Translations under genes and position numbers: made by a program
The notes under the pieces: model-generated
The model's input: the letters and a program-made list of their open reading frames with translations, nothing else
Databases searched by the model: none
What the model was told of the DNA's origin: nothing
Part shown: positions 4,240 to 56,593 of the stretch, in pieces
Position numbering within the stretch: position 1 is the stretch's first letter
How the letters are laid out: the number at the start of each line of letters is the position of its first letter
NCBI GenBank assembly: GCA_030656555.1
Contig: JAUSPN010000101.1
Span: 2,941 to 66,940, forward strand
Direction: 5' to 3'
Length of the DNA stretch: 64,000 nucleotides
From: Candidatus Desulfaltia sp.
Lineage (GTDB): Bacteria; Desulfobacterota; Desulfobacteria; Desulfobacterales; ETH-SRB1

Positions 4240-4320
4240 TATTCTATTCATTTTATAACAAAAAGACGGAGCGACCTGCCTGTGCGTTACTCGCAGACAG
4301 GAGCGATTCCATAAATCATC

Positions 4321-4395
4321 AATCTTCAATCTTCAATCTTCAATCTTCAATCTTCAATCTTCAATCTTCAATCTTCAATCTTCAATCTTCAATCT
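4321..4395. repeat. Perfect tandem repeat (AATCTTC) x10 plus a partial unit
   Basis: Read directly. The array ends 1 nt from the CCA end of tRNA-Ser(CGA). It produces the spurious SSIFNLQ repeats in track ORF 4233-4631. Confidence 0.95.
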
Positions 4396-6279: not shown

Positions 6280-7020
6280 TCACTCCATCATCTTTTTAAC
6301 TTCATCTGTATAGGAACCATCTTCGCAATAGATGATAAGTGGTGGACCTATCTTTGTGCCGGGGCATCCACCTTTAATCCCTTCCACCAAAATAAGTTTT
6401 GCTTCCGAATTCAGATCCGAATAAATAATACGGAAAAATTTAGGCTCAATACCATTTGAACGCATTTGGGTGAGCATGTCGGTTATCCGCTGGGCAGGGT
6501 AAATTATAACAAATCTTCCTGAAGTTCGTAACATGCAACGGGCTGTTTCAATAACATCATTCAGATTAACCTTAATTTCGTGCCTGGCAACCGCTTTTTG
6601 TTGATCCGGATTCATCCTTCCTGCCCCGGCTTTCCTGTATGGGGGATTGCATACAATCAGATCCACTGGACCAGAAACCATATCATGCTTAAGCTCTTTC
6701 ATGTCACAGCAGAGAATGACAATTCGATCTTCCATGTGATTTTCTTTAACATTTTCGGCTGCAATATCAGCAAGCTCCTTTTGAATTTCAATACCATAAA
6801 CTTTTATTTTTTTATGCCTATGCGCAAGAATCAAGGGGATAATCCCGCATCCTGTTCCAAGATCAAGGACCTTGTCGCCCGGCCGCAATCTGATATGGCC
6901 GGCCAACAAAACTGCATCAATCGAAAAACGGTAGCCCAACCGATTCTGTTTGACCTGCAGACTGCCCTTAAAAAAAGTATCTGTGGTTAAAGTTTTCATC
7001 TTTTGTAATAGTTCAGCCAC
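6280..7020 (-). CDS. SAM-dependent methyltransferase, tRNA (adenine-N6) TrmN6/YfiC-like
   Basis: VLDLGTGCGIIPLILA (motif I) and LIVCNPPYRKAG (NPPY motif); 246 aa. Confidence 0.6.
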   Translation of the reverse strand: MAELLQKMKTLTTDTFFKGSLQVKQNRLGYRFSIDAVLLAGHIRLRPGDKVLDLGTGCGIIPLILAHRHKKIKVYGIEIQKELADIAAENVKENHMEDRIVILCCDMKELKHDMVSGPVDLIVCNPPYRKAGAGRMNPDQQKAVARHEIKVNLNDVIETARCMLRTSGRFVIIYPAQRITDMLTQMRSNGIEPKFFRIIYSDLNSEAKLILVEGIKGGCPGTKIGPPLIIYCEDGSYTDEVKKMME

Positions 7021-7218: not shown

Positions 7219-7318
7219 TTAGGAATTGCGAATTTAGGAATTTAGGAATTAAAGGTATTCTGTTGATTTCAATTCCTTAATCCCTTAATCCCTTAATCCC
7301 TTAATCCCTCAATCCCTT
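7219..7318. repeat. Hairpin element with octamer tandem arms (AATTTAGG vs CCTTAATC x5)
   Basis: ttaggaattgcgaatttaggaatttaggaattaaaggtattctgttgatttcaattccttaatcccttaatcccttaatcccttaatccctcaatccc. Confidence 0.75.
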
Positions 7319-11874: not shown

Positions 11875-13551
<1,677 letters not shown>

Positions 13552-21162: not shown

Positions 21163-22053
21163 CTACCTGCTGCAAATAAAATCCACACCATTTTGAAACA
21201 TGCGTATGCCGGCTGTAGCGCCTGTATTTATTGCGCCTCCACGGCGCTTTATCTTTTCCTTATCGCGCGTCCAGTCCGGATGATTTGTCCAGTGGTTAAA
21301 GGCTTCGGGATGAGGCATAAGGCCGAAGATCCGGCCGGTGGGATCGCATATACCGGCAATATCATTTATTGACCCGTTTGGATTAAACGGGAATTTGCCC
21401 TCTGCGGGATTTCCGTCCGGCATGGCATACTGGATAACGACCTGGTTGTTTTTTGTTAGGCGCTGGATTATGTCCTTATCCGAATAAAATTTTCCCTCAC
21501 CATGCCTTATGGGAAGCTCAATCTTGTCAAATCTGACCTCTGACCTCTGACCTCTGACCTCTGACCTCTCTCCATGCCTTACAGGAAGCTCCAGGGTATC
21601 AAATCCTTTTGTAAATACACATGGAGATAAAGGATTAACCTTCAGCATTACCCAGTCGTCCCTGAAATTTCCACAATCATTAAATGTAAGGGCAATGGAT
21701 CGTGTCTTGTAATTGCCTTTAAAGCCAGGCAAAAGCCCCATGTTGACAAGCGTCTGGAATCCATTGCATATTCCAAGCACAAGATTCCCTTTGTCAACAA
21801 ATTCAAGTATTTTATCGCCTATATTTGTCTTCAGGCGCACAGCCTGAATCACACCGGCGCCATGATCGTCTCCCCAGCTGAACCCTCCCACAAAGACCAT
21901 TATCTGAAAATTATCAAGAGTCACAGAACCGTCAATAAGCGAGTTAATATGCACCCTACTGGCTGAAGCGCCAGCCAGTTCAAGGGCATAAGCTGTCTCA
22001 TTATCACAGTTCAGGCCGTATCCGGCCAGGACAAGAGCATTTACCATCTTCAT
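21163..22053 (-). CDS. purQ: Phosphoribosylformylglycinamidine synthase, glutaminase subunit PurQ (carries a 24-codon in-frame insertion)
   Basis: LGICNGFQTL (nucleophile Cys) and PIRHGEGKF (His/Glu); overlaps purL by 4 nt. Confidence 0.9.
   Translation of the reverse strand: MKMVNALVLAGYGLNCDNETAYALELAGASASRVHINSLIDGSVTLDNFQIMVFVGGFSWGDDHGAGVIQAVRLKTNIGDKILEFVDKGNLVLGICNGFQTLVNMGLLPGFKGNYKTRSIALTFNDCGNFRDDWVMLKVNPLSPCVFTKGFDTLELPVRHGERSEVRGQRSEVRFDKIELPIRHGEGKFYSDKDIIQRLTKNNQVVIQYAMPDGNPAEGKFPFNPNGSINDIAGICDPTGRIFGLMPHPEAFNHWTNHPDWTRDKEKIKRRGGAINTGATAGIRMFQNGVDFICSR
21534..21568. repeat. (TGACCTC) x5 tandem repeat inside purQ, flanked by a 24-bp imperfect duplication
   Basis: Array read directly. 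The duplicated segments ctcaccatgccttatgggaagctc (21496-21519) and ctctccatgccttacaggaagctc (21568-21591) encode ELPIRHGE / ELPVRHGE. Confidence 0.9.
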
Positions 22054-25091: not shown

Positions 25092-25167
25092 GGTTCAGGG
25101 TTCAGGGTTCAGGGTTCAGGGTTCATTTCTTTCTAACTTGGAACCGTGAACCGTGGAACTGTGAACC
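25092..25167. repeat. Hairpin element: (GGTTCAG) x4 arm versus GAACCGTGAACC-type arm
   Basis: ggttcagggttcagggttcagggttcagggttca tttctttctaacttg gaaccgtgaaccgtggaactgtgaacc. Confidence 0.8.
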
Positions 25168-27429: not shown

Positions 27430-28271
27430 AGCAGTATATATTCCTTAAAAAAATATGCGACAGGAGCTGCAAACAAAAGCGCATCAATTCGATCAAGGAT
27501 ACCGCCGTGACCGGGCAGAATTGAGCCTGAATCTTTCACGCCGGAATATCTTTTAAGTTCGGATTCAAACAGATCGCCAACCTGCCCGGCAACTCCGATT
27601 AAAAGAAAAAACAGGATGCTTGGCCCCAGTGGCAATGATTTTAAAAAATAATTCATAAAGATAAGACCTGCCCCCAAAGTCGCTATAAGTCCACCAATAG
27701 CGCCTTCAATAGTCTTTCCAGGGCTAACGGCAGGACAAAGTTTATGTCGCCCCAAAAGGCGGCCAACATAGAATGCTCCTGTATCACCCGCAAAAACAAG
27801 AGCCAGCAGAAAGAAAATCCAGACTGCGCCATCAGCATCATTTCGTATTAACACCATGCAGGAAAGAAATAATGGAATGTATATAATGCCAAGGATCTGC
27901 TTTGCAATTAGCTCTACAACCGAGGGATTTGTCTTGAAGTAGCGCAGAGAAATCAGTCCGGAAAAAATAAGGTTTAAAATAATAAGGCCAAAAACAATAT
28001 TAAACGAGTTTATATATGCGGCCATAATAATGATAGGACTTATGATAAAAGCTGAAAGCTGAAAGCTGAAAGCTGAAAGGTTTTTAACTTCTTGCTTTGA
28101 GCTTTGAGCTTTATTGAACACTATGCGAAAATATTCTACAAGCGCCATCATGCATACTATACAAATAAATATAGCAAACAGAATTGATCCCCCTTTCCAA
28201 GTCAGCAAGACAAGAAGGGGAAGAGCCACGATAGCTGTAATCCAACGTTTAAAATGCATATTGTTTTTCAA
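27426..28271 (-). CDS. cdsA: Phosphatidate cytidylyltransferase CdsA (with an in-frame repeat insertion)
   Basis: C-terminal SELKRYSGVKDSGSILPGHGGILDRIDALLF signature. Confidence 0.85.
   Translation of the reverse strand: MKNNMHFKRWITAIVALPLLVLLTWKGGSILFAIFICIVCMMALVEYFRIVFNKAQSSKQEVKNLSAFSFQLSAFIISPIIIMAAYINSFNIVFGLIILNLIFSGLISLRYFKTNPSVVELIAKQILGIIYIPLFLSCMVLIRNDADGAVWIFFLLALVFAGDTGAFYVGRLLGRHKLCPAVSPGKTIEGAIGGLIATLGAGLIFMNYFLKSLPLGPSILFFLLIGVAGQVGDLFESELKRYSGVKDSGSILPGHGGILDRIDALLFAAPVAYFFKEYILL
28047..28112. repeat. Heptamer-armed hairpin element inside the cdsA coding sequence
   Basis: (GCTGAAA) x4 at 28051-28078 faces gctttgagctttgagcttt at 28094-28112. It encodes NKAQSSKQEVKNLSAFSFQLSAF in frame. 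Confidence 0.75.
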
Positions 28272-43572: not shown

Positions 43573-43601
43573 AGTTGAAGCCTTTGTTAATATTTTTAAT
43601 T

Positions 43602-44714
43602 ATGAAAATAAAACGTAAAAAAACACGTCAAATCATGGTCGGAAAAGTAAAGGTCGGAGGAATGGCTCCAGTTGCTGTTCAGTCCATGACTAATACCTTT
43701 ACGCAGGATGTCACAGCCACGGTTTTACAAATAAAACGTTTGGAAAAAGCCGGGTGTGAGATTGTCCGGGTGGCTGTTCCGGATAAGGAGGCAGCCGAGG
43801 CAATTTCTGCAATAAAGGATAAAATATCGATTCCTCTTATAGCAGATATCCATTTTGACTACCGCCTGGCAATTGCCTCGGCTATGGCCGGAGCTGATGG
43901 CTTGAGGTTAAATCCAGGCAATATAGGAGGGGCCAAAAAAATAAAGGCAGTTGTTGACTGCGCAAAAGATTTTAATATTCCAATCAGGATAGGAGTTAAT
44001 TCCGGCTCTATTGAAAAAGATATTTTGAAAAAATATAAAGGCGTTACTGTTGAGGGTATGGTTGAAAGCGCCGTCCGTAATATAGAATTATTAACATCAT
44101 ATGGCTTTTATGATATAAAATTATCTATAAAAGCATCGGATGTGCTCCGCAGTGTTGAGGCTTACAGGCTGCTTTCATCAAAAACCGATTTCCCTCTTCA
44201 TGTGGGTATAACAGAGGCCGGTCCTCTTTATCCGGGAATAGTTAAATCATCACTCGGCATAGGGATGCTTCTCGCAGAAGGGATAGGTGATACGATCCGT
44301 GTTTCTTTGACCAGAGATCCTGTCGAAGAGGTTCGTGTGGGCTATGAAATCCTGAAGGCTCTTGATATTCGCCGGCATGGCCCTGATATAATATCATGCC
44401 CGACCTGTGGTCGGTGCAATATTGATCTGTTTAATATTGTAGAACAGGTTGAAAGCGCCCTTGTGTCAAATCCTATGCCGGTTAAGATAGCCATAATGGG
44501 ATGCATTGTAAACGGCCCGGGAGAAGCAAGGGAAGCGGATATCGGAATTGCAGGCGCTGACGGCGCTGGGATACTGTTTAAAAAAGGAAAGGTGATAAAA
44601 AAGTTTCCTCAGGAAAAACTCGTTGATGTTCTACTGAAAGAACTTGAGCAGATGGCAGGAAAAACCAACTATTTTCACCACGCAGCACACAGAGACCACG
44701 GAGAAAATCGGTGA
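43602..44714 (+). CDS. ispG: 4-hydroxy-3-methylbut-2-enyl diphosphate synthase IspG
   Basis: KVGGMAPVAVQSMTNT...RVAVPD...ISCPTCGRC. ATG at 43602 preferred. The last ~15 codons (HHAAHRDHGENR) read into a CACAGAG-word repeat arm. Confidence 0.93.
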   Translation: MKIKRKKTRQIMVGKVKVGGMAPVAVQSMTNTFTQDVTATVLQIKRLEKAGCEIVRVAVPDKEAAEAISAIKDKISIPLIADIHFDYRLAIASAMAGADGLRLNPGNIGGAKKIKAVVDCAKDFNIPIRIGVNSGSIEKDILKKYKGVTVEGMVESAVRNIELLTSYGFYDIKLSIKASDVLRSVEAYRLLSSKTDFPLHVGITEAGPLYPGIVKSSLGIGMLLAEGIGDTIRVSLTRDPVEEVRVGYEILKALDIRRHGPDIISCPTCGRCNIDLFNIVEQVESALVSNPMPVKIAIMGCIVNGPGEAREADIGIAGADGAGILFKKGKVIKKFPQEKLVDVLLKELEQMAGKTNYFHHAAHRDHGENR

Positions 44715-44741: not shown

Positions 44742-45297
44742 ATGAGTAAAAATGGAGTTGTTCCGGTTGATCAGATTGAAAGCATTATCTTTCTGATACG
44801 CGCTCAAAAGGTCATGTTAAGCCCTCACCTGGCGGAACATTGAACCGCGCGTTCTGGTTCAGGCAGTAAAGCGAAATATCGATAGGTTTCCAGTAGACTT
44901 TATGTTCCAGTTATCAGATGATGAGTTTGCTAACTTGAAATCACAAATTGTGACTTCAAGTTGGGGCGGCCCTCGCAGAGCAAAACCATACGCTTTTACA
45001 GAACAAGGGGTTGCAATGCTTTCCAGTGTTCTGAAAAGCAAGCGTGCGGTTCAGGTTAATATTGAGATCATGCGTGCCTTCGTGCAACTCCGCGAAATGC
45101 TGGCTTCTAACGTGGAGCTTGCCGGTAAGCTGAAACAAATGGAAAAGAAATATGATAAACAGTTTAAGATCGTCTTTGAAGCTATTCGCCAGCTCATGAC
45201 GCCGCTTGCAAAACCACGCAAGAAGATTGGCTTTATAGTAAAGGAAAAGCAAGCTGCCTATGGCAAAATGACAAAGGGAAGTAGAAAAAAGAAATGA
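44742..45297 (+). pseudogene. ORF6N-domain (KilA-N-like DNA-binding) gene disrupted by a frameshift
   Basis: Frame A gives [33 protein letters not shown], stopping at 44841. Frame B, open from 44821, gives ..[66 protein letters not shown]. Together they rebuild a typical ORF6N protein if a small out-of-frame deletion lies near 44835-44841. Confidence 0.65.
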
Positions 45298-45518
45298 TAC
45301 CGAAAAAGACAACATTCAATAAAAATAATATCATTAAGGGTCAAAGGCAGACCTTACCCCTTTTTTATTCACCAGATAAAAGCGGCATCAAAGTGGCCAA
45401 ATACATGACCGAACTCCCGAAACGCGAACTACTGGAGCAGAAGTTTCACAAAGCGGTTGAATTAGCGCAAAAACGGCCGGAGGCAAAACCTGCATGGTGC
45501 AATACAGAACACAAATGA
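45294..45518 (+). CDS. Small hypothetical protein, start overlapping the ORF6N stop (ATGA)
   Basis: 74-aa track ORF with no domain I can name. Confidence 0.3.
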
Positions 45519-45633
45519 TGTCAGCGGGATAAAGTGAATCGGAGGATGGTATACATATTATTGCCTTTTTTCTTCGGGAAATAAGTGTACTGTACCTGGA
45601 ATTACAAAAACTAAAATATACACCCAAGGAAAA

Positions 45634-46794
45634 ATGAAAATGAAAAACATTGAGTTAAAACTGAAAGAATTTGAGTTTTCTGAAAAGAGTGAAAAACATC
45701 TTGATTGGAGCATTGAAAAATTCTCGTTAGGAGAATTTAATATAATATTAAGTGATAATGCTCAAGGCAAAACTAGAATGTTTAACATATTGAGATTTCT
45801 AAAGGATATTCACACAGTTGGACGGAAATTCAATAATCCTAATTACAAAGCTAAGGCTACTCTTTGGTTTGAATCAGGTGAAGATAAGATATTTTATGAT
45901 TTAGCTTTTGCCGGAGAGCCAAAAGGCGATGGGCTTGTTTTCAATGAAATTGTAAAAAGAAATGAAATTGTCCTGTTTGACAGATCAAAAAAGATGCTAA
46001 TTGATGAAACTAACAATGAACAGGTTGGTAAATTTTTTCTGCCAAGCAATGCGCCGGTGGCCTTAGCAGTGAAAGATAAAGAATATATAACTATAAATTT
46101 GATACAAGATTTCTTTTCTCGAATGCTCTTCTTAGAAGCAAACCGTTTTGCACCCGATAAATTATCAATTGATATGGCTGCCATGACTTTAGACACGAAG
46201 GGGCAAAATATCGGCTGTGTTTTGAATAATTGGAAGAAAAAGAAACCGTTATTATACAATGAAGTTGTTGAAGTTTTTAGAGATTGCTTCCCTTTTATAG
46301 AAGATATTTCTATCGAAAAAAAAGCATTTGTACCTGGAATACCCGATTCTCCGATGATGTACATAAAAGAAAAAGATATAGATAGAAAAATTATTCAAAC
46401 TGCATGGAGTGACGGTATGTTAAGGGCTTTGGGTCATTTTATCGTAGTTAGCACTCAATTCCAAAGCGAAACTGATGCAGTAATTAGACCAAGTTTCATT
46501 GGGGTTGATGAAGTTGAAAACGGGCTTGATTTTAATGTATTAGCTAAAGTTATAGAATACTATGAATCATATAGTAGTTTAATTCAAATTGTAATAGCGA
46601 CTCATTCACCTTTGGTTTGCAATATGGTTGGAGCAGATAACTGGTTGATAATGAAAAGGAAAGGTGTAAAAGTTAAGGTCTTTTCTCCTTCCAATGTTGA
46701 GAATTTAGAAACTGAGAGGCGGAAGATTAAAAAAGACAACTGGGAATTTTATCGAAGGCATATTGCTAAATCGAAACTATATAGGATTAAGTAA
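45634..46794 (+). CDS. ABC/SMC-like AAA ATPase (AAA_15/21-type) with an atypical Walker A
   Basis: ILSDNAQGKT (Walker A with Ser in place of the first Gly), WSDGMLRAL (signature-like), SFIGVDEVENGLD (Walker B/D-loop), VIATHSP (H-loop). Confidence 0.7.
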   Translation: MKMKNIELKLKEFEFSEKSEKHLDWSIEKFSLGEFNIILSDNAQGKTRMFNILRFLKDIHTVGRKFNNPNYKAKATLWFESGEDKIFYDLAFAGEPKGDGLVFNEIVKRNEIVLFDRSKKMLIDETNNEQVGKFFLPSNAPVALAVKDKEYITINLIQDFFSRMLFLEANRFAPDKLSIDMAAMTLDTKGQNIGCVLNNWKKKKPLLYNEVVEVFRDCFPFIEDISIEKKAFVPGIPDSPMMYIKEKDIDRKIIQTAWSDGMLRALGHFIVVSTQFQSETDAVIRPSFIGVDEVENGLDFNVLAKVIEYYESYSSLIQIVIATHSPLVCNMVGADNWLIMKRKGVKVKVFSPSNVENLETERRKIKKDNWEFYRRHIAKSKLYRIK

Positions 46795-47456
46795 TGAAGG
46801 CAGTCATATACTATGAAGGCCCTTCCGAGAGAAAAATGATTAATCATCTTCTATATAAATCCTCTCAAATCATTATTCGTACGGAAGATTATAAAGAGTT
46901 TTTAGACGCACCAATAGACCAGAATTGCATCCTGTTTTATGATTGTAAAGGAGATGGAAATGTCTTTCCGAGTATTGCTAAAACTCCTTATTACTATGAA
47001 AATGATGAGCAAATAATAATTATAAGGGATTTAGAAACTACAGATTGTTTCACTCTGCTAAAAGACGAGTTGAACGATTATTGTCCAGAATTACCAGAGG
47101 CCCGTACAAAGCCTATTTTTGCCAAATATACATTAGAACACGTATATCTTGCCGATTTGGATATCTTTAAACAAGTATTTCGTTTGACGTATAGGAAAAA
47201 AACAGGGAAAGAGATTCCTGACAACGAAAGATTTGAGAAATTAATCGGCAATTTAGACCCTATAAAACCTGACTTAAAGGGGATATTTAGGGCTTATGGG
47301 ATAGCATTTCATAAGTCAGCAATAGCACATGAATTTTTTGCAAGGTTCGACTTCCACAATTCGAACCATCCTTATTTCATCAGGCTCGTTAAGTCATTAC
47401 ATAAGCTATTGCATGAACCGGAAAATGGGGGCGGCCTTGACATGGAACAAAGTTAA
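46794..47456 (+). CDS. TOPRIM-like partner protein (DUF4276/RloB/DUF4435-like)
   Basis: 1-nt overlap (TAATG) with the ATPase. N-terminus is MKAVIYYEGPSERKMINHLL, with an acidic IIIIRDLETTD block and a C-terminal AIAHEFFARF...YFIRLVKSL. The family assignment is from memory of these families. Confidence 0.45.
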   Translation: MKAVIYYEGPSERKMINHLLYKSSQIIIRTEDYKEFLDAPIDQNCILFYDCKGDGNVFPSIAKTPYYYENDEQIIIIRDLETTDCFTLLKDELNDYCPELPEARTKPIFAKYTLEHVYLADLDIFKQVFRLTYRKKTGKEIPDNERFEKLIGNLDPIKPDLKGIFRAYGIAFHKSAIAHEFFARFDFHNSNHPYFIRLVKSLHKLLHEPENGGGLDMEQS

Positions 47457-47583
47457 GTACTTGGCCTACCAATCAATCCAGCGGACGTGGTAAAGGGTGC
47501 TGCTGATCTTTTTGTTGGTCCATGCAACTTGCAACAGTGTTCTTCATTAGAGTCTATGACCACTTAGAATCCAGGAGTATTTC

Positions 47584-47793
47584 ATGGCAAAGACCGATCT
47601 TACAGACGAAGAAAAGAAAACAATAATTGAGACGCTGAATAACAATGTTGAACCGCCTTCGGAGCTAATGACAAAACTCTTTCCGGGACTGGCGGAAAAA
47701 TTCGATGTGGCGAAACTGGACAGGGCTAAGGTCGTCACCCTTGAATATGTGGGGAAAAGGAATCGAAGGGGAAATCAGAGGACATATTATTGA
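47584..47793 (+). pseudogene. Orphan fragment resembling the N-terminus of a Mod methyltransferase
   Basis: TDEEKKTIIETLNNNVEPPSELMTKLFP...LEYVGKR parallels the N-terminus of the next gene (TESEKQKIIEMIKASKPIPVIYKNKLF...LVYKGKTRKEDI) at protein level only. It stops soon after. Confidence 0.35.
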
Positions 47794-47885
47794 AACAATC
47801 AAGCAATTGATGCAGCCGTCGAAAAAACCGAGAAAGAGAATAAGTTAGAAAATTAGAGTAACAGTATGATACCAAGGGCAATATT

Positions 47886-50174
47886 TTGAAACTTACCGAA
47901 AGTGAAAAGCAGAAAATCATTGAAATGATCAAGGCAAGCAAGCCGATCCCTGTAATTTACAAAAACAAGCTTTTTGATTCAGATGATTCGGAATTCATCG
48001 AGGCTACCAAAGACTACAGGCTGGTTTATAAGGGAAAAACACGGAAAGAGGATATTATTGCAGGCACGCCTGTCGCACCTTTTCAGAAAGTCCGTTCCTT
48101 TAACAGCGACAATTCCTTTGATGAAGACTGGCGGAATATGCTCATTTTCGGCGACAATCTTCTTGCCCTTAAAACCATCTATGATGATCAGCGAAACGAA
48201 AACAGATATAAGACAAAAAACCGCATAAAGCTCATCTACATCGATCCCCCCTTTGCCACCAAACAGGATTTCATGAAAGACCGGGAAAAGGCGTACCGTG
48301 ACAAGATTATCGGGGCGCAGTTTATTGAATTTTTGCGCAAACGCTTGATTCTCATGCGGGAGATTCTGGCCGACAACGGCTCTATTTATGTGCACCTGGA
48401 CTGGAAGAAAGGGCATTATATCAAGGCCATAATGGATGAGGTATTTGGAGAGCATAATTTTCAAAACGAAGTTATTTGGCATTATAGGCTGTGGACAGCT
48501 GGAGATAAAAAATTTCAAAATATGCATGACACAGTTTTCTTTTATACAAAATCAGAAAATTCTTTTTTTAATCTTCCCTATGATCCTTATGGTGATTGGA
48601 TAAAAAAGGATTATCAATATTTTGATGAAGAAAGTGGTAAACGATGGAGATGGCATACTGTAAAGGGAAAACGATATAAAGTATTTCTTGAAGATGAAAA
48701 TAGGGGTGTAAAGTCTAATGATGTTTGGGAAATTCCGTATATAGTATCTACTGCGATAGAAAGAAAAATAACTGGAAATTATCCAACCCAAAAACCGGAA
48801 CAATTATTAGAGAGAATAATATCTGCCTCATCTAACGAAAATGACATCATCCTCGACGCCTTCGCCGGTTCCGGCACCACCCTTGCCGTTGCAGAAAAAC
48901 TTGGCCGCCGCTGGATCGGAATGGACTGCGGGAAACTTGCTATTTACACCATCCAGAAAAGAATGCTCAATCTCACCACCCGAATCGGTTCCGCGAAAAA
49001 TGATGACCGCCGGGATTATGAACGGGTGGATGATTTCGAAGATCATTCCAAAAATTCCCGCGGTCTGTTTTTTGTCTATGAGAAAGCCCGCAGGGGTGAT
49101 CTGGCAATTACCGACACATTCCTCAAAAACTTTGCCGGTTTTATTTCAGAAAATCTATCCGGCAATAAAGAACAATCCTTTTCGCTGGCTTGTCCTAAAG
49201 ACAAGTTCAAAGTCCACAAGCTGAAAGTAACGGAAAACGAAGACGGAAAAGCGGGGGAAAAGATTGTAACGGTGGGCAAAGTCAGATTTCGAATTTCCTT
49301 TATCCTGTCAAAAGAAAAGACCGAAAAGGAAAAACCACTGAAGGCAAAAGAATTCACGCTCTACAACGCCGGCATCTACGATAATAAACAGATCCTTAAT
49401 ATGGATTGGGAGTCTTATAAGCCTTTTGTCACCCAGCTTTTTGGCCTTCGCCCCGAATCTCACAAGATACACGGCTTCATGGCAGACGGCTATATCGGCA
49501 TTCATTCAGCTTATATATGGGACTATCCGAATCAGAAAAATTTAATCCTTGATACAGGATATGTCAAAACACTGCACACGGTTTTAGGTGGCAGGGCCGG
49601 CAATAAATTCTATGTAATTGCCCCTGTTATCTCGATGGGATTTATGGAAGATGAAATTCCAATCGACGGAACCACCTACGTTTTTCTGAAAGTTCCTCTA
49701 TCCATATTGATGGCGCTCATTGAAAAGGGCGAGCCGGGAAGTCTGAAACAGCCGGTTAGTGAAAATGATGTCAACGAAGTAATCGACGCGGTTGGATTTG
49801 ACTTTATCTCCCAGCCCGTGGTTGCTGCAAGGTACTGCCGGAAAGCGCCGGAAAACCGGAATCTGTTTAACCAGGATCATAAGGATTTTGTCATTGAAAT
49901 CACTCAATTCAAGTCCAATACTCTTGTCTACGATCCGGAGGATTTTGAAAATTTTGAAACCCTTTCAATGGTATTGATCGATACCAATTACAACGGCGGG
50001 TATTTCAATCTGGATAATGCCTTCTGGGCAGATAAAATACTTGATGATGCTAAAACCAAAGCCGTTATAAGAATCCCGCAAAATGAATTTGCCGGCAAAA
50101 AGATGCTGGTAATATTTATGGATAAGTATGGAAATGAACTCAAAGTTTTGAAATCAAAAGGGGATTTCAAATGA
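47886..50174 (+). CDS. mod: Type III restriction-modification methyltransferase (Mod)
   Basis: IKLIYIDPPFATKQDF (motif IV) and ILDAFAGSGTTLAVAEKLGRRWIGMD (motif I). TTG start is uncertain. 4-nt overlap with res. Confidence 0.85.
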   Translation: MKLTESEKQKIIEMIKASKPIPVIYKNKLFDSDDSEFIEATKDYRLVYKGKTRKEDIIAGTPVAPFQKVRSFNSDNSFDEDWRNMLIFGDNLLALKTIYDDQRNENRYKTKNRIKLIYIDPPFATKQDFMKDREKAYRDKIIGAQFIEFLRKRLILMREILADNGSIYVHLDWKKGHYIKAIMDEVFGEHNFQNEVIWHYRLWTAGDKKFQNMHDTVFFYTKSENSFFNLPYDPYGDWIKKDYQYFDEESGKRWRWHTVKGKRYKVFLEDENRGVKSNDVWEIPYIVSTAIERKITGNYPTQKPEQLLERIISASSNENDIILDAFAGSGTTLAVAEKLGRRWIGMDCGKLAIYTIQKRMLNLTTRIGSAKNDDRRDYERVDDFEDHSKNSRGLFFVYEKARRGDLAITDTFLKNFAGFISENLSGNKEQSFSLACPKDKFKVHKLKVTENEDGKAGEKIVTVGKVRFRISFILSKEKTEKEKPLKAKEFTLYNAGIYDNKQILNMDWESYKPFVTQLFGLRPESHKIHGFMADGYIGIHSAYIWDYPNQKNLILDTGYVKTLHTVLGGRAGNKFYVIAPVISMGFMEDEIPIDGTTYVFLKVPLSILMALIEKGEPGSLKQPVSENDVNEVIDAVGFDFISQPVVAARYCRKAPENRNLFNQDHKDFVIEITQFKSNTLVYDPEDFENFETLSMVLIDTNYNGGYFNLDNAFWADKILDDAKTKAVIRIPQNEFAGKKMLVIFMDKYGNELKVLKSKGDFK

Positions 50175-52774
50175 GCCTTAAATATAAAAATGATGATTTC
50201 TTGCTCCGAACAGACGACTATTCTGAAAAAGTGCTATCTGTAGTCAATAAGTATGATGCCTTTTTAGACGCACTGACTACCGCTGATTTTGGGCATATTC
50301 GTGAAGCGACAAGAATGGCCATTCAATTTTTTGTCTCCGATAAATATAAAAATACAGAGCAGGTTGCAGTCCATACTTATAACCAATCCCCAAAACTTAA
50401 GATCCGCTATAATAGATTGAATGATTATTTGGGGCATATTCAGATCAGGGATAAGAAATCGTTCAGCATCGACTTGGCCACAGGCACTGGGAAAAGCTGG
50501 GTTATATACGCTGTGTCTCAGATTATGCTGGCGGAGGGTCTGGTGGACAAGGTGCTGGTGTTATGTCCGTCTTTGACTATCGAAGAAGAGCTAAAAATTA
50601 AATTTGAAGTATTCAGCGGAAATAACGTATTGACACAGATTCTGACTGAACTGGATGCGGCTTATCCCTCTCCTGCCATCAAGAGCGCCAATGTCCCAAT
50701 CTTGAACGGTGATATTTGTATCGAGAACATCCACGCCGCCTATCAGCGAACAGGCTCTTCCATTCCTGACAGCTTTAAAGGCAAAGGGCAGCGAACCCTG
50801 GTCATCAGTGATGAAGCCCATCACATATACAGTAAGGCAGACGCTAATGTGAAGAAGTGGTACGATTTCTTGATAAACCCGGATTACGATTTTCATTATC
50901 TGCTTGGACTAACAGGCACACCTTATATCGGTGATGAATATTTTCACGACGTGATTTACCGTTACAGCCTGAAACAGGCAATGGAAGACGGGATCATCAA
51001 AAAAATTGATTATAAGGTCGAAGAGGAGTCGGATAAAGAGAAGGGGTTTGATGAAACATATCAGAATCACGTAGCCATACAGGAAATGTATTCCGGCAAT
51101 TTAAAGCCCATCACTATTATCATAACCGACAGGATCGTTACCTGTATCCAGGTGTGGAACAATCTGGTTAAATATATCTCTGAAAAAGAAAACCTGTCCT
51201 ATGACCAGGCGGCAAAAAAAGTCATCTGGGTGACTTCCGGCCTGCCATCTTCGGCAAATGAAAGAACGGTTGTTGATGGTATTTTAAGCAACGGTGAAAA
51301 AGTGCGGAAAGAAAACCTGACATTGCTGAAATCTGTGGATGAAAAGGAGAATCCCGTAGAATGGATTGTCTCTGTAAGTATGCTTACCGAAGGATGGGAT
51401 GTTAAAAATGTATTTCAGATTGTGCCTCATGAACAACGGGCTTTTAATTCCAAATTGCTTATTTCACAGGTTCTGGGCAGGGGGTTAAGAATACCGAAAG
51501 GGTTGGAACACCCGATCTTTGTAAAAATCAATAATCATGAAAAATGGACGCCAAAGATTGTTAATCTATATAACGAAGTCCTGGAAATAGAAAATAAGAT
51601 CTCATGGTTTTATGATGAATCCAAAAAACGCTATGCCTTCCCGCTTTACAATTTAGAATATGCATCCCTGCAGGACACCATAGAGATCAAGAAAGAGCCT
51701 GCAAAAGAACCGGGAAAGGTGGATTTTTCGCCACAGAGCAGAAAATGGGAAGAAACCAGCCGCTATTCGGAAACAGGTTCTTTTCGTTTCACCGTTGAGA
51801 ATAAGGACATATTGACCATCGAGCAGGCCGCGCGCCAGATCAAACTTTTTTTAAAGGAAAAAGACGCCTCTATTTCAAAGCAGTGGTCGATTAAGAAAAT
51901 CAAGGATTTTATTGTTAAGAACCTTGAGAAAGATGATTACGATTCGTCATTTCTTACAAATGAAAATTTATCAAAAGCAAAACAGGCATTTGGGCCGATG
52001 TTTAGGGAATTAGACAAGAAAGCGCCCAGGATGAAAATGCGGCCTGATTCGCTCTATCCGTTAATCTGGGAGGAGATGTCGTTACAGTCTTTCAATGAGA
52101 GTGCAATAAAGGAGAACAGTTACGTTTATTATACAAAAGATTCTGTCAATTCTCTTTCAGCCGAGCAGAAAATTTTATTTGGCGACTTTTTAAAAGATAA
52201 AGAAAACTATGATCAGGTTAGAGAAAAGGTTGTCAGGTATGGTGGCAACGAAGACGAAATCAAATTTTTACAGGAAAATCTCTTTGAAAGAACGGATGAT
52301 GAGTTCAAAACGCCGTTAAATATGCTTTTTGTCTCCTATGAGCCGGAACATCGATTTGCCAACTCATTATTTAATAATATTAATTTGTTTGACTCGATTT
52401 TCAAATCACCGGATAAGGGCTTTTATTGGTTCCCCTATTCTTATAAACCGGACGAGAAAGGAAGCACTCACGTTAAGAGGGAAAATTTTAATCCTGATTT
52501 TTTCATCAAACTGAAAGATAAAAATGAAATACTGGTGGTAGAGATAAAGGCGGACAGCGACACCAATCAAAAAAACAAAGCAAAATATCGGGACGGAAAG
52601 GCGCATTTTGATTCGTTGAACAAGAAATTGAAGGAAAATGGCATTGATTGGAAATACCATTTCTACTTTTTATCGCCGGAAGACAGAACAGAGTTTTTTC
52701 AGGCTGTTCGTGATGGTCGGTATAAAAACTGGAAATCCGGATTGATGCAGGAATTAAGTAGTAACGGAAAGTAA
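50171..52774 (+). CDS. res: Type III restriction enzyme Res subunit (SF2 helicase plus C-terminal PD-(D/E)xK)
   Basis: DLATGTGKSWVI (motif I), VISDEAHHIY (DEAH), GLTGTPY, MLTEGWDVKNV, QVLGRGLR, and C-terminal NPDFFIK...ILVVEIKADSD. Confidence 0.85.
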   Translation: MSLKYKNDDFLLRTDDYSEKVLSVVNKYDAFLDALTTADFGHIREATRMAIQFFVSDKYKNTEQVAVHTYNQSPKLKIRYNRLNDYLGHIQIRDKKSFSIDLATGTGKSWVIYAVSQIMLAEGLVDKVLVLCPSLTIEEELKIKFEVFSGNNVLTQILTELDAAYPSPAIKSANVPILNGDICIENIHAAYQRTGSSIPDSFKGKGQRTLVISDEAHHIYSKADANVKKWYDFLINPDYDFHYLLGLTGTPYIGDEYFHDVIYRYSLKQAMEDGIIKKIDYKVEEESDKEKGFDETYQNHVAIQEMYSGNLKPITIIITDRIVTCIQVWNNLVKYISEKENLSYDQAAKKVIWVTSGLPSSANERTVVDGILSNGEKVRKENLTLLKSVDEKENPVEWIVSVSMLTEGWDVKNVFQIVPHEQRAFNSKLLISQVLGRGLRIPKGLEHPIFVKINNHEKWTPKIVNLYNEVLEIENKISWFYDESKKRYAFPLYNLEYASLQDTIEIKKEPAKEPGKVDFSPQSRKWEETSRYSETGSFRFTVENKDILTIEQAARQIKLFLKEKDASISKQWSIKKIKDFIVKNLEKDDYDSSFLTNENLSKAKQAFGPMFRELDKKAPRMKMRPDSLYPLIWEEMSLQSFNESAIKENSYVYYTKDSVNSLSAEQKILFGDFLKDKENYDQVREKVVRYGGNEDEIKFLQENLFERTDDEFKTPLNMLFVSYEPEHRFANSLFNNINLFDSIFKSPDKGFYWFPYSYKPDEKGSTHVKRENFNPDFFIKLKDKNEILVVEIKADSDTNQKNKAKYRDGKAHFDSLNKKLKENGIDWKYHFYFLSPEDRTEFFQAVRDGRYKNWKSGLMQELSSNGK

Positions 52775-52891
52775 GTGAAATCGGAAGCAGGCTCACATTT
52801 ATTCCTGACTTTGCTTTTTTGAAGAACAACCGACATTGAGAAGTTCGAAGCTGTTAGGGACGTGCCTTGGGGACATCCATTGGATTATAAC

Positions 52892-53020
52892 GGGAGGTTA
52901 GGGGACGTAGCTCAGTTTATAAGTTTATATCGTCGGGAAGGAAACCCATGGGAACAGCCATTGAAAAACAAGGGGGAATATGCAGTACATTAGTTTATAA
53001 GTTGATGTGGTAATTGAACT
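52892..53020 (+). repeat. Direct repeat copy 1 (~128 bp) upstream of the Panacea/toxin cassette
   Basis: gggaggttaggggacgtagctcagtttataagtttatatcgtcgggaaggaaacccatgggaacagccattgaaaaacaagggggaatatgcagtacattagtttataagttgatgtggtaattgaact aligns over its full length with 54811-54938, with scattered substitutions. Confidence 0.85.
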
Positions 53021-53202
53021 GAAGAACGTAGTTGACCCCAGTTAAATAAAAGCAAACATGATATTATAGCTGTTTAATTTAAATATGAATATTTAAGATG
53101 CGACCTCAATGAACTCTTTATAAGAAAACAGTCTTCGCCGTTAAAAGAAGATTCCGAGAAAGAGTAATATGATGAGAAAATTTAAATATATGGTTGTTTA
53201 TA

Positions 53203-54000
53203 ATGAAATCCAGTAAAATTGACATCCTCATACAATACGCAATTTTAATTGCCGGTCAGGAAGATGAGTATCTTGACCGCCAGCTTGGTCCAATCCACTT
53301 GATAAAATACGTCTATCTGGCGGATTTGGCATATGCTGAGCGTAATTGCGGTGAGACTTTTACAGGAATTGCCTGGCAGTTTTATAAGTTCGGGCCTTGG
53401 TCTGAAGCAGTTAACGAGCGGATTGAACCTGCTCTTGCTGCAATTGGAGCAAACAAAAAAACATTTCCCAGCAACTTTGACGACAAAAATGATTGGTTTA
53501 GGTGGCAGATTACAGATGATCGTTTGCTGGATGATATAGAACGAAAGCTACCTTTTCCTGTTACATCGCGCCTTAAAAGAGATATTCATAAGTTTGGTCA
53601 AGACACTCCTTCACTGTTAAGCTATGTCTATCTGACCTCCCCGATGCTTTTGGCCGCCCCGAATGAGTATCTCGATTTCTCGCACTTGAATCAAAAAAGC
53701 GAAGATATAAAAAAGCCTTTGCCGTTAAAGAAAGAGAGCTTGACTGCCAGGGAAAAGAAAAAATTCAAAGAAGGCATGCAAAAAATACGTGAAAAGAACT
53801 TCGAAAGGCAGTCCGCTGATCGCAGGAAAACACAACTCGTAAATCCTGTTCCGCATCCTAAATATGACGATGTCTATTATGACGGGCTGAAGTGGCTTGA
53901 CAGCCTTGCCGGTCCCCCGCTACCTGAAGGGGAAAAAGAAGCCATTTTCTCCGATTCTGTCTGGAAGTCAAGTAGCAGAAGGGGTGAAGATGTTTCCTGA
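53203..54000 (+). CDS. Panacea (DUF4065/SocA-like) domain antitoxin candidate
   Basis: LGPIHLIKYVYLADLAYAERNCGETFTGIAWQFYKFGPWSEAV matches the DUF4065 pattern (KLxYLAD...W..GPW). ATG at 53203 preferred over the track TTG at 53194. Its stop overlaps the next ATG (ATGTTTCCTGA). Confidence 0.6.
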   Translation: MKSSKIDILIQYAILIAGQEDEYLDRQLGPIHLIKYVYLADLAYAERNCGETFTGIAWQFYKFGPWSEAVNERIEPALAAIGANKKTFPSNFDDKNDWFRWQITDDRLLDDIERKLPFPVTSRLKRDIHKFGQDTPSLLSYVYLTSPMLLAAPNEYLDFSHLNQKSEDIKKPLPLKKESLTAREKKKFKEGMQKIREKNFERQSADRRKTQLVNPVPHPKYDDVYYDGLKWLDSLAGPPLPEGEKEAIFSDSVWKSSSRRGEDVS

Positions 54001-54696
54001 TGATTCGGTCCAGTCCATTATTAGCCCTTCTTTATGGTGGGAAGAAACCAAAACAAAAAACTTCGAGAGGGGTTGCCTTGTTTATGCCTTTATACCACAT
54101 GTTGACCAAGTGCCTTATACTATAAGACTTGTCGGAAGATCACAGGCAGAACGGCATGACAGCGCAAAGCTGGATATTGCTCCATTGAGGATAAAGACAG
54201 GCGCAAAAAAGAAGATTTGCCTGTAGCTGCAATGGCGCTTCATGATGATGAGCTGTGGGCAGCTTATAGGGCAAAGAAAAGACCGTGTCTTGTATTGGGA
54301 AGTGCTGTCCCAGCTGTAGACAATAAATTAAGATGGGGTATGCCAAAGAAATCGACGGCACCAACGGTGATTGTTGCACCCTATTATGGTTCTGACCATG
54401 ATGGCACGCGTGCCGGATATAATCCTGAGCTTGTTGAGCGAATACGACACGCAGAATATCCGCAATTTTTTTGGGATAAACTTCCTATTTTCGGGCCGAA
54501 AGAGTCGATATTGAGACTTGATCACATTCAACCCGTTGGAACACATTACAATTCGTATGAATTGGCCAAATATAAGCTGAGCAAAAATGCCATGGAGCTC
54601 ATGGATGATTTACTCCAATGGCTCATTTGGGGTGGCGTCCCTGCTGACAGCCTCATTTTAGATTACAGAAAACAAATTGAATCTACCTTTGGCTAA
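53990..54696 (+). CDS. MazF/PemK-fold-like toxin candidate in two frames, joined by a -1 shift at A_AAA_AAG (54205-54211) or else disrupted
   Basis: Frame 1 reads MFPDDS...ERGCLVYAFIPHVD...APLRIKTGAKKKICL*, stopping at 54226. The -1 frame continues ..EDLPVAAMALHDDELWAAYRAKKRPCLVLG...TVIVAPYYG...ILRLDHIQPV. The joined product would be about 235 aa. Confidence 0.5.
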
Positions 54697-54810
54697 CATA
54701 TATCATGTAGTTGGCGTAATTACGTAGAGGGCAATGGAGGTATAGCATGATTGTATCCGTGGGACTTACGGGACATTCTCAACTTTTAAACTTGTAAGGC
54801 AGATGAAACA

Positions 54811-54938
54811 GGGGATTAGAGGGCGTAGCTCAGTTTATAAGTTTATATCGTCAGGAAGGAACCCCACGGGAACAGCCATTGAAAAATAAGGTGGAATATA
54901 CGGGACATTAGTCTATAAGTTGGCGGGGTAATTGAACT
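54811..54938 (+). repeat. Direct repeat copy 2 (~128 bp) downstream of the cassette, upstream of proS
   Basis: ggggattagagggcgtagctcagtttataagtttatatcgtcaggaaggaaccccacgggaacagccattgaaaaataaggtggaatatacgggacattagtctataagttggcggggtaattgaact. Confidence 0.85.
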
Positions 54939-55072: not shown

Positions 55073-56593
55073 ATGGCAAAACAAGTTAAAACCGCAATAA
55101 GCCCGACAAGAGCTGAAGATTATCCGGAATGGTACCAGCAGGTGGTCAAGGCCTCGGATATGGCTGAGAATTCACCCGTAAGAGGCTGCATGGTAATAAA
55201 GCCGTGGGGATATGCCATTTGGGAAAATATTATGCGCATCCTTAATGAAATATTTAAGGCAACAGGGGTGAAAAATGCATATTTCCCGCTATTTATTCCC
55301 CTTTCTTTTCTTGAAAAAGAGGCCGAGCATGTTGAGGGGTTTGCAAAGGAATGCGCAGTTGTATCGCATCACAGACTTGAAAAAGGCCCAAACGGCGGCC
55401 TGGTGCCTGCAGGTCCGCTCAATGAACCTTTGATAGTGCGACCGACTTCAGAAACAATTATCGGAGATGCCTTTTCAAAGTGGATTTCCAGTTATCGTGA
55501 TTTTCCGATACTCATCAACCAGTGGGCAAATGTTGTCAGATGGGAAATGAGGCCCCGGATATTTTTGAGAACCAGTGAATTCCTGTGGCAGGAAGGGCAT
55601 ACAGCCCATGCTGCAAAAGAAGAGGCAATTGAACGGGCTCACATGATGCTTGATCTTTACGCGCATTTTGTTGAACAATACCTTGCTATGCCTGTAATGA
55701 GAGGGAAAAAATCCGAGTCGGAAAGATTCCCGGGAGCTGTTGATACTCTTTGCATCGAAGCTATGATGCAGGATAGAAAGGCTTTGCAGGCTGGCACATC
55801 ACATTTTTTAGGGCAGAATTTTGCCAGAGCATCCAATATCAAATTTCAGTCTGCCGAAGAAAAAGAGGAATATGCGTGGACGACTTCATGGGGAACATCT
55901 ACGCGTCTTATCGGAGGTCTTATAATGACACACAGCGATGATGACGGCCTTGTGCTTCCCCCTAAAATCGCATCCTCACACGTTGTTTTGCTGCCTATTA
56001 TAAGAAAGGCTGATGACAAATCAAGGGTGATGGAGTTTACTGAAAGCCTTGCAAAAGAGCTTAAAGATAAATTTTTCTGCGGCCGCAGGCTGGAAGTTGA
56101 AATTGACGATCGTGAAATCGGCGGCGCAAGAGGCTGGGACTGGATTAAAAAAGGTATTCCTCTACGGGTTGAAATAGGACCCAGAGATATTGATGATAAT
56201 TCCGTATTTGTGGGAAGGCGTGACAAGCCTCACAAGGATAAACAATCATTTAAAAGAGATGATTTTATCAACCAGGTAACAGATATACTTGATGAAATAC
56301 AGATATCTCTTTTTGAACGCGCCCTCTTGTTCAGGAAAGAGCATAGTGTTACAATCGAAGACAAAAAAACATTTGTTGATTTTTTTACACCCGCAAATAG
56401 TGAAAAACCCGAAATTCACGGTGGATTTGCATCATCATGCTGGTGCGGATCAAAAGAGTGTGAATCAAAAATAAAGCAGGATCTTAGCGTTTCGATACGA
56501 TGTGTTCCGCTTTTCGATATAAAGGAAAAAGGCGAGTGTGTTTACTGCGGACAGCCTGCAACTAACCGTGTAATATTTGCAAAGGCATATTAA
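55073..56593 (+). CDS. proS: Proline-tRNA ligase (archaeal/eukaryote-like type)
   Basis: YPEWYQQVVKASDMAENSPVRGCMVIKPWGYAIWENI...RPTSET...FLRTSEFLWQEGHTAH. Confidence 0.93.
   Translation: MAKQVKTAISPTRAEDYPEWYQQVVKASDMAENSPVRGCMVIKPWGYAIWENIMRILNEIFKATGVKNAYFPLFIPLSFLEKEAEHVEGFAKECAVVSHHRLEKGPNGGLVPAGPLNEPLIVRPTSETIIGDAFSKWISSYRDFPILINQWANVVRWEMRPRIFLRTSEFLWQEGHTAHAAKEEAIERAHMMLDLYAHFVEQYLAMPVMRGKKSESERFPGAVDTLCIEAMMQDRKALQAGTSHFLGQNFARASNIKFQSAEEKEEYAWTTSWGTSTRLIGGLIMTHSDDDGLVLPPKIASSHVVLLPIIRKADDKSRVMEFTESLAKELKDKFFCGRRLEVEIDDREIGGARGWDWIKKGIPLRVEIGPRDIDDNSVFVGRRDKPHKDKQSFKRDDFINQVTDILDEIQISLFERALLFRKEHSVTIEDKKTFVDFFTPANSEKPEIHGGFASSCWCGSKECESKIKQDLSVSIRCVPLFDIKEKGECVYCGQPATNRVIFAKAY

Follow-up and report, generated by a model that had tools for sequence, protein, structure and literature searches.

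A PanAT-type toxin–antitoxin cassette of Candidatus Desulfaltia sp. with a toxin gene probably disabled by a one-nucleotide deletion near a slippery heptamer

The pairing of a Panacea antitoxin with a MazF-like toxin is of an already published kind. Kurata et al. (2022) validated PanA antitoxins whose partner toxins resemble EndoA, PemK and MazF in HHpred searches, have no CDD hits and inhibit translation (PMC8832971). Such PanAT pairs were described from Pseudomonas moraviensis and Bifidobacterium ruminantium (PMC8832971). The locus discussed here lies in a window of 64,000 nucleotides from Candidatus Desulfaltia sp. (contig JAUSPN010000101.1), in which all coordinates below are counted. It resembles the PanAT pairs in its layout, with a Panacea (DUF4065/PF13274) antitoxin gene upstream of and overlapping the toxin gene, in a toxin that has no CDD or Pfam match and is MazF-like at the level of structure prediction, and in its occurrence on mobile DNA in defence contexts. 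The likeness is one of layout, domain, predicted structure and context, and the toxin of the window, unlike the validated PanT proteins, is 235 amino acids (aa) long and encoded by a frameshifted gene.

A second system that invites comparison is the dnaX gene of Escherichia coli. The two loci have in common an identical A_AAA_AAG heptamer, an upstream Shine–Dalgarno-like element and a downstream hairpin, which in the window is predicted and stands 4–8 nt away. The Shine–Dalgarno-like element of E. coli dnaX is AGGGAG, about 10 nt upstream of its heptamer, compared with GAGGA at 13 nt in the window. The dnaX signals are conserved and let an intact gene yield a truncated product besides the full-length one. 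The third likeness is to decaying chromosomal toxin–antitoxin (TA) loci, in which a single inactivating indel strikes the toxin gene and the antitoxin is retained; independent lesions are found in three further loci of the same family (L052, L059 and L060), and nothing notable distinguishes the locus of the window from such decaying loci except its chance placement beside a slippery heptamer. Overall, the locus is best explained, with fairly high confidence, as a mobile PanAT-type cassette whose toxin gene has been disabled by a recent 1-nt deletion.

Gene pair and toxin fold

The antitoxin gene (53203–54000, + strand) is an intact open reading frame (ORF) of 265 aa. Its product combines an N-terminal Panacea domain (PF13274) with a Lys/Glu-rich, partly disordered C-terminal part. 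The initial annotation had called the upstream gene a Panacea-type antitoxin from its sequence pattern, and the call is borne out at the level of the family: PF13274 is matched by 41 of the 45 aligned relatives (53–97% identity; best E-value 9e-7), whereas the protein of the window taken alone stays below the threshold of the SocA_Panacea model (E 1.3e-3; 20 bits, with the cut-off at 25.7). Further, the homologue P0223 is named ‘Panacea domain-containing protein’ by NCBI, and the gene adjoining it, by consecutive accession, is a member of the toxin family. The AF2 model of the antitoxin has a pLDDT of 82.8, exceeding 90 over residues 1–160. A structure search of the PDB with this model returned nothing interpretable, and sequence profile searches of the PDB with the antitoxin and with the toxin were empty or gave noise.

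The toxin gene starts with the ATG at 53990 and overlaps the antitoxin stop by 11 nt. When its two frames are joined, the resulting 235-aa protein has 402 homologues, the best 120 of which are nearly all 233–252 aa long and covered over ~100% of their length; an exhaustive profile search collected 538 clusters of the toxin family at 50% identity. A Panacea gene stands immediately upstream of the toxin in 58 of 60 loci, usually overlapping the toxin start by a few nucleotides, and the loci span Cloacimonadota, Desulfobacterota, Binatota, Gammaproteobacteria and Nitrospirota, among others. Judged from gene order, this conserved and overlapping pairing is characteristic of type II TA operons. By analogy with known PanAT systems, the Panacea antitoxin would neutralise, by binding, the protein encoded by the overlapping downstream gene, to which its own gene is presumably coupled in translation.

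The MazF/PemK likeness that the initial annotation had read from short sequence blocks stands in part. It finds no echo in family databases: the toxin matched no Pfam family at E ≤ 1, PemK_toxin (PF02452) included, searches of NCBIfam and PADLOC gave no match, and the profile search of PDB sequences with the toxin contained no MazF. In contrast, when the AF2 model of the toxin (built on 47 sequences; pLDDT 81, pTM 0.79) was compared with the PDB by Foldseek, the top nine matches were all MazF chains (prob 0.85–0.99), although the matches are weak, with E-values of 0.025–0.19, an rmsd of 5–7 Å and TM-scores of 0.50–0.56 on MazF and 0.24–0.28 on the query. An hhalign comparison of the toxin with five MazF/PemK sequences was also weak (E 0.041) and placed the motifs in canonical order, with KKRPCLVLG on G-x-RP-VLVI, TAPTVIVAPYYG on the hydrophobic-strand-plus-PxT motif of MazF and ESILRLDHIQP on DSVILLEQIRT. 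In this weak alignment the invariant R98 of the toxin falls on the catalytic R29 of E. coli MazF, and the position of MazF T52 falls on Y132/Y133.

The differences from MazF are considerable. At 235 aa the toxin is about twice the size of MazF, its ~120 extra residues including added N-terminal strands and two long C-terminal helices. It has Tyr-Tyr at the Thr52 position, and its invariant polar residues (D39, Q40, R50, H56, E88, R141, D163 and R176) form a set different from that of MazF. Collectively, the model comparisons moderately support a MazF-fold-like core for the toxin; the matches are weak and do not establish the toxin as a member of the MazF/PemK family. The downstream gene would then encode a 235-aa toxin with a MazF/PemK-like β-barrel core and a C-terminal helical extension, which may act as a translation-targeting RNase or similar.

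Mobility and genomic setting

DNA homology between the window and other TA loci begins at 53120–53178 and ends at 54703–54757, and the neighbouring genes are different in every locus. As the homology is confined to the cassette while its neighbours change, the unit moves on its own. The transferable unit (53120–54757, + strand) is DNA common to unrelated contexts at 86–95% identity, and the cassettes of a Cloacimonadota MAG and of a MAG labelled Syntrophales (L012 and L013) are 92% identical in DNA.

In the window, the cassette stands at the end of an accessory block of ~10 kb between ispG (43575–44714) and proS (55073–56593). The block also contains an ORF6N fragment, an AAA_21 ATPase weakly resembling MAD3 together with a 220-aa partner, and a type III restriction-modification pair (Mod, 47886–50174; Res, 50171–52774); a search for a CRISPR array in the window found none. 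The locus can probably be regarded as a horizontally mobile two-gene PanAT-type cassette set in a defence island that has ispG and proS as its neighbours.

Direct repeats of 132 nt on the + strand enclose the cassette, the left copy at 52889–53020 and the right copy, 87% identical to it, at 54807–54938; the window contains no further copy. A core of ~75 nt from this repeat was found again in 20 metagenome contigs; the sequences to its left and right are unrelated, and it always adjoins defence or accessory genes such as SIR2_2, HEPN/RES, SMODS, a type I HsdR with YgjP, Schlafen AlbA_2, AAA_14/DUF4143, AbiEii and KilA-N. In contig L061, a SIR2_2 gene lies between two direct copies spaced 1.9 kb apart, much as the PanAT pair lies between the two copies in the window. 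Three identities were considered for the 132-nt repeat and rejected: the test for a tRNA was negative, no Rfam family matched, and there was no folding signal of a structured RNA (z +0.9 and +1.6). The repeat was absent from IMG/VR. It resembles a sequence for the joining or recombination of defence-island cassettes.

The missing nucleotide

As it now stands, the toxin gene is read in two parts, both on the + strand. Frame A (53990–54226), delimited by its ORF and by alignment with orthologues, encodes 78 aa; its coding is genuine as far as 54192 and continues with 11 out-of-frame codons and the TAG at 54224–54226. Frame B, which is −1 relative to frame A, is open from 54160 to the stop at 54694–54696, and its portion 3' of the break (54193–54696) holds ancestral residues 69–235 with no further lesion before the normal stop. 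The initial annotation had noticed that the downstream frames overlap the antitoxin stop and are joined into 235 aa by a −1 shift, and that an A_AAA_AAG heptamer preceded at 13 nt by GAGGA is in phase at the site; both observations were confirmed in the sequence. A −1 slip at the heptamer would join the frames through ...IKTGAKKEDLPVAAM... into the 235-aa product. The annotation had also placed the frame break exactly at the heptamer and offered two causes for it, the loss of one nucleotide from the A-run and programmed −1 frameshifting. Comparison with intact orthologues contradicts the placement and both causes.

The DNA alignment with intact orthologues (98% identity over the 132 nt around the site, 92% across the cassette) contains a sole indel, one G absent between 54192 and 54193 on the + strand, where AGGATGAAAGAC of the orthologue is reduced to AGGAT-AAAGAC in the window. 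The codon affected is the ATG of Met68, which becomes AT, and the site lies 13 nt upstream of the heptamer. All 11 close intact loci (86–93% protein identity) carry AGGATGAAAGA...CGCAAAAAAGAAGAT; their shared pattern is AGGATGAAA(G/A)A...CGCA(A/C)AAAAGAAGAT, with the A6G run present in 10 of the 11. The A-run of the window is A6, equal in length to the A6 of the close intact orthologues, which rules out the loss of an A. Orthologues with an uninterrupted ORF and an A7 run had been anticipated for a simple pseudogene. The uninterrupted ORF is what was found, which points in substance to a simple pseudogene, but the orthologues have A6 and the lesion lies elsewhere.

The same result is obtained from the protein sequences. 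The closest homologue, P0001, a protein of 235 aa and 91% identity from the Cloacimonadota MAG Candidatus Celaenobacter antarcticus, reads ...P-L-R-M-K-D-R-R-K-K-E-D-L-P, and frame B of the window reads ...E-D-K-D-R-R-K-K-E-D-L-P already upstream of the heptamer. Since frame B gives K-D-R-R ahead of the heptamer, the homology changes frame between L-R-(M/I) and K-D-R-R, and not at the A-run.

One concern is that the G might be present in the organism and have been dropped in sequencing or assembly, in which case the toxin gene would be intact. The allele is known from a single sequencing run (SRR13727525). Logan contig L011 from this run is 100% identical to window positions 53033–54630 over 1598 nt, missing G included; identical copies of the window's antitoxin and ProS were found in SRR13727525 only, and L011 is thus a second assembly of the same sample and not an independent population. 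Exact look-ups of both split toxin products returned no other record, the pattern of the deletion allele was absent from IMG/VR, and the contig of the antitoxin's closest relative, P0121 (97%), ends short of the lesion site and so says nothing about the deletion. An error is nevertheless very unlikely. Two separate assemblies are identical over the 1598 nt, and the G missing from GGATGAAAG stands alone, the deletion allele being GGATAAAG; it lies outside any homopolymer and is hence not a typical indel error.

The branch leading to the window carries 9 synonymous and 4 non-synonymous private changes, numbers similar to those of sister branches, and no second lesion, so the deletion appears to be recent. 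One of the private changes, P47L, affects a position at which at least 90% of family members agree. On the evidence of these alignments, with both assemblies drawn from one sequencing run, the split toxin is very probably the outcome of a 1-nt deletion that struck this lineage recently and turned the toxin gene into a pseudogene. Loss of the G from the Met68 codon would lead ribosomes out of frame to the stop at 54224–54226 and leave a 78-aa fragment. The toxin would in this way be inactivated or strongly attenuated, with the antitoxin intact.

Signals around the heptamer

The frame-A codons at the site are GGC GCA AAA AAG AAG. GC_A_AAA_AAG occupies 54203–54211, and the heptamer itself (54205–54211, + strand) is in frame-A phase solely through the upstream deletion. 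The Shine–Dalgarno-like GAGGA (54187–54191, + strand) falls within the Leu-Arg codons TTG AGG and is found in intact orthologues as well. Folding predicts an RNA hairpin at 54216–54270 on the + strand (−22.4 kcal/mol, z −2.35; equalled by 4 of 200 shuffled sequences). The conserved codons for LPVAA and WAAYR make up the hairpin, and its arms are unchanged where they could be aligned to intact orthologues (to 54260, the 3' arm being not fully covered).

Close orthologues read the same A6G run in the other phase, as Lys-Lys-Glu, within one uninterrupted 235-aa ORF. Over the segment compared, heptamer, GAGGA and hairpin are essentially unchanged in these intact genes, in which the heptamer is out of phase, and the signals therefore give no evidence of selection for frameshifting. 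As to chance, the window contains 62 copies of AAAAAAG, both strands counted, and about 0.011 in-phase copies are expected in the ~67-nt overlap of the two frames. An in-phase heptamer is uncommon for any one gene and unremarkable for a scan that selects such coincidences; the Lys-Lys-Glu codons of the true frame account for it completely.

These observations bear directly on the proposal that dnaX-type programmed −1 frameshifting has evolved here as a control layer on toxin synthesis. The locus does have a canonical heptamer, with a Shine–Dalgarno-like element and a 3' hairpin at plausible distances from it. However, the frame junction defined by homology does not coincide with the heptamer and lies 13 nt upstream of it. 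Further, a conserved two-frame layout was sought in the 11 close orthologous loci, in ~60 loci and in more than 400 proteins, and was found neither in the close loci nor in the rest of the family; essentially all are single ORFs, contiguous over ~235 aa in the orthologues. Frame-aware tblastn of 60 loci detected damaged or split copies in L052, L059 and L060 only. The single other −1 lesion nearby is that of L052, where a C-run three codons upstream of the site hit in the window has lost 1 nt and no heptamer is present; in L059 the toxin has an internal deletion and the antitoxin is lost, and in L060 the toxin is truncated. In distant family members the segment corresponding to the heptamer is a variable loop of unrelated sequence. 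A literature search on frameshifting in TA toxins found no precedent. Programming is, on this evidence, extremely unlikely.

A recurrent split at the same place was also considered, as representatives of 150–178 aa starting near residue 61–82 looked suggestive. The one that was checked (P0378, locus L083) proved to be intact: it begins at a GTG, in place of which the gene caller had chosen an internal ATG.

It is a different matter whether the broken gene leaks. A −1 slip at the fortuitous A_AAA_AAG, aided by GAGGA and the hairpin, would yield a reduced amount of full-length toxin and keep the module functional at a lowered dose. The heptamer is in frame-A phase, with GAGGA 13 nt upstream and the hairpin 4–8 nt downstream. 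The predicted slip product differs from the ancestor at four residues (M68I, D70T, R71G and R72A; junction peptide IKTGAKKEDLPVAAMALHDDELWAAYR), all in a variable coil between model strands 59–65 and 76–85. There is no second lesion, and non-synonymous changes are not in excess. The position of the deletion is also particular. In the frame that an orthologue would adopt after a 1-nt deletion, a TGA (A-TGA-AA) precedes the heptamer by 12 nt, and its G is the nucleotide that the window has lost; as this G belongs to the blocking codon, the deletion falls within the only ~14 nt (about 2%) of the 705-nt gene in which a deletion gives access to the heptamer.

Against this, ancestral coding accounts for every element, and intact orthologues have each of them unchanged, if out of phase. 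The finding was itself selected for coincidence, and 0.011 per frameshifted gene is not small across a genome-wide scan. Further, the shiftiness of A_AAA_AAG depends on the tRNA-Lys set of the host, and P47L, at its conserved position, hints at decay. A leaky pseudogene is accordingly rated as rather unlikely. The stronger form of the idea, in which the allele is a dose-attenuated functional toxin kept by selection for a ‘rescuable’ frameshift, its deletion having removed the blocking TGA, is unlikely. Leaky rescue, if true, would be a natural frameshift mutation buffered by ribosomal slippage and still not a programmed system.

The preferred reading remains a recent deletion in a decaying toxin gene. 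Heptamer, GAGGA and hairpin would then be by-products of ancestral coding (L-R-M...K-K-E...LPVAA...WAAYR) and not an evolved frameshift signal. In contrast to the signals of dnaX, these coding by-products came into phase only via a private 1-nt deletion, and a slip at them would repair the frame instead of diversifying the product. The case carries a caution, namely that a textbook slippery heptamer with both of its stimulators can arise purely from Lys-Lys-Glu coding and adjoin a frameshift by chance. The locus would represent routine toxin decay in a chromosomal TA module and no new layer of toxin control. Beyond the single locus, the analysis brings to light a widespread two-gene family without a Pfam model, in which a Panacea antitoxin is paired with a double-sized, uncharacterised toxin that is probably MazF-fold-like.

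Flanking repeats, accessory genes and possible spread of the TA unit

The cassette of Panacea-type antitoxin gene (53203-54000) and overlapping MazF-fold-like toxin gene (53990-54696) is flanked on both sides by 132-nt direct repeats in the window, the left copy at 52889-53020 and the right copy at 54807-54938, which are 87% identical to each other. A core of ~75 nt, GATTAGGGGACGTAGCTCAGTTTATAAGTTTATATCGTCAAGAAGGAAACCCACGGGAATATCCATTGAAAAATAAG, was found in 20 metagenome contigs (L061-L080) whose flanks are unrelated to one another. Every time, the neighbours of the core are defence or accessory genes: SIR2_2, HEPN/RES, SMODS, HsdR+YgjP, AlbA_2, AbiEii and KilA-N. In one of these contigs, L061, two copies (728-798 and 2606-2658) enclose a SIR2_2 gene. 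The flanking repeat gave no signal as a tRNA, against Rfam or in folding, and a look-up in IMG/VR returned zero copies. The repeat is a possible cassette junction or recombination sequence.

Between ispG and the TA cassette lies an accessory block (44902-52774). Its genes are a fragment of ORF6N/Rha (44902-45297); an ATPase of the AAA_21 family (45634-46794), weakly similar to the MADS ATPase MAD3, and its partner of 220 aa, which has no annotation (46794-47456); and the Mod (47886-50174) and Res (50171-52774) genes of a type III-like R-M pair. The Res C-terminus (residues 769-828) has a sub-threshold match to a TnsA-like endonuclease. The TA unit itself (53125-54757) shares ~92% DNA identity with loci in two MAGs placed in different phyla, Ca. 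Celaenobacter antarcticus (L012, Cloacimonadota) and a MAG labelled Syntrophales (L013), a level that suggests either horizontal transfer in the very recent past or a binning error.

In several places of the window (4314-4395, 7271-7318, 13501-13545, 21532-21569, 25092-25125 and 28048-28079), short units of 7-9 nt are repeated in tandem, perfectly or nearly so; among these arrays are AATCTTC x11.7, flanked by two tRNA-Ser genes, and GGCGGAATG x5. These arrays may be contingency-locus-like repeats.

Lesions and decay in the toxin family

Codon 47 of the window's toxin gene (54128-54130) encodes Leu, while Pro occupies this position in at least 90% of the family and in all close relatives; this non-synonymous substitution, P47L, is private to the window's gene and alters a conserved residue, on top of the window's frameshift. 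A toxin homologue in a Candidatus Muproteobacteria MAG (L052, MFTB01000040.1, 3189-3200) has lost one base from a C-run (C5 to C4 in GTCCCC-TCAGC), independently of the window's deletion and three codons upstream of it; this 1-nt loss splits the gene, again in a -1 layout but with no slippery heptamer. That the two lesions fall within about 10 nt of each other may be coincidental (about 3%), or may mean that lesions are tolerated in this variable loop. Because P0259, a homologous protein in the representative library, begins at the same point as the L052 lesion, this lesion may be common to relatives.

Other toxin copies are decayed: that of L059 lacks an internal stretch (residues ~101-169) and its antitoxin is absent, that of L060 is reduced to residues 2-96, and L004 has an intact copy and, 1.6 kb further downstream, an additional orphan 3' fragment (6282-6449; residues 180-235, 84% identical).

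Start codons and apparent fragments

The toxin homologue of L083 (1273-1983) has a GTG start, and public gene predictions wrongly begin at an internal ATG (Met82 region). Such start miscalls of GTG-start homologues produce 150-160-aa 'fragments' that resemble split genes in protein databases.
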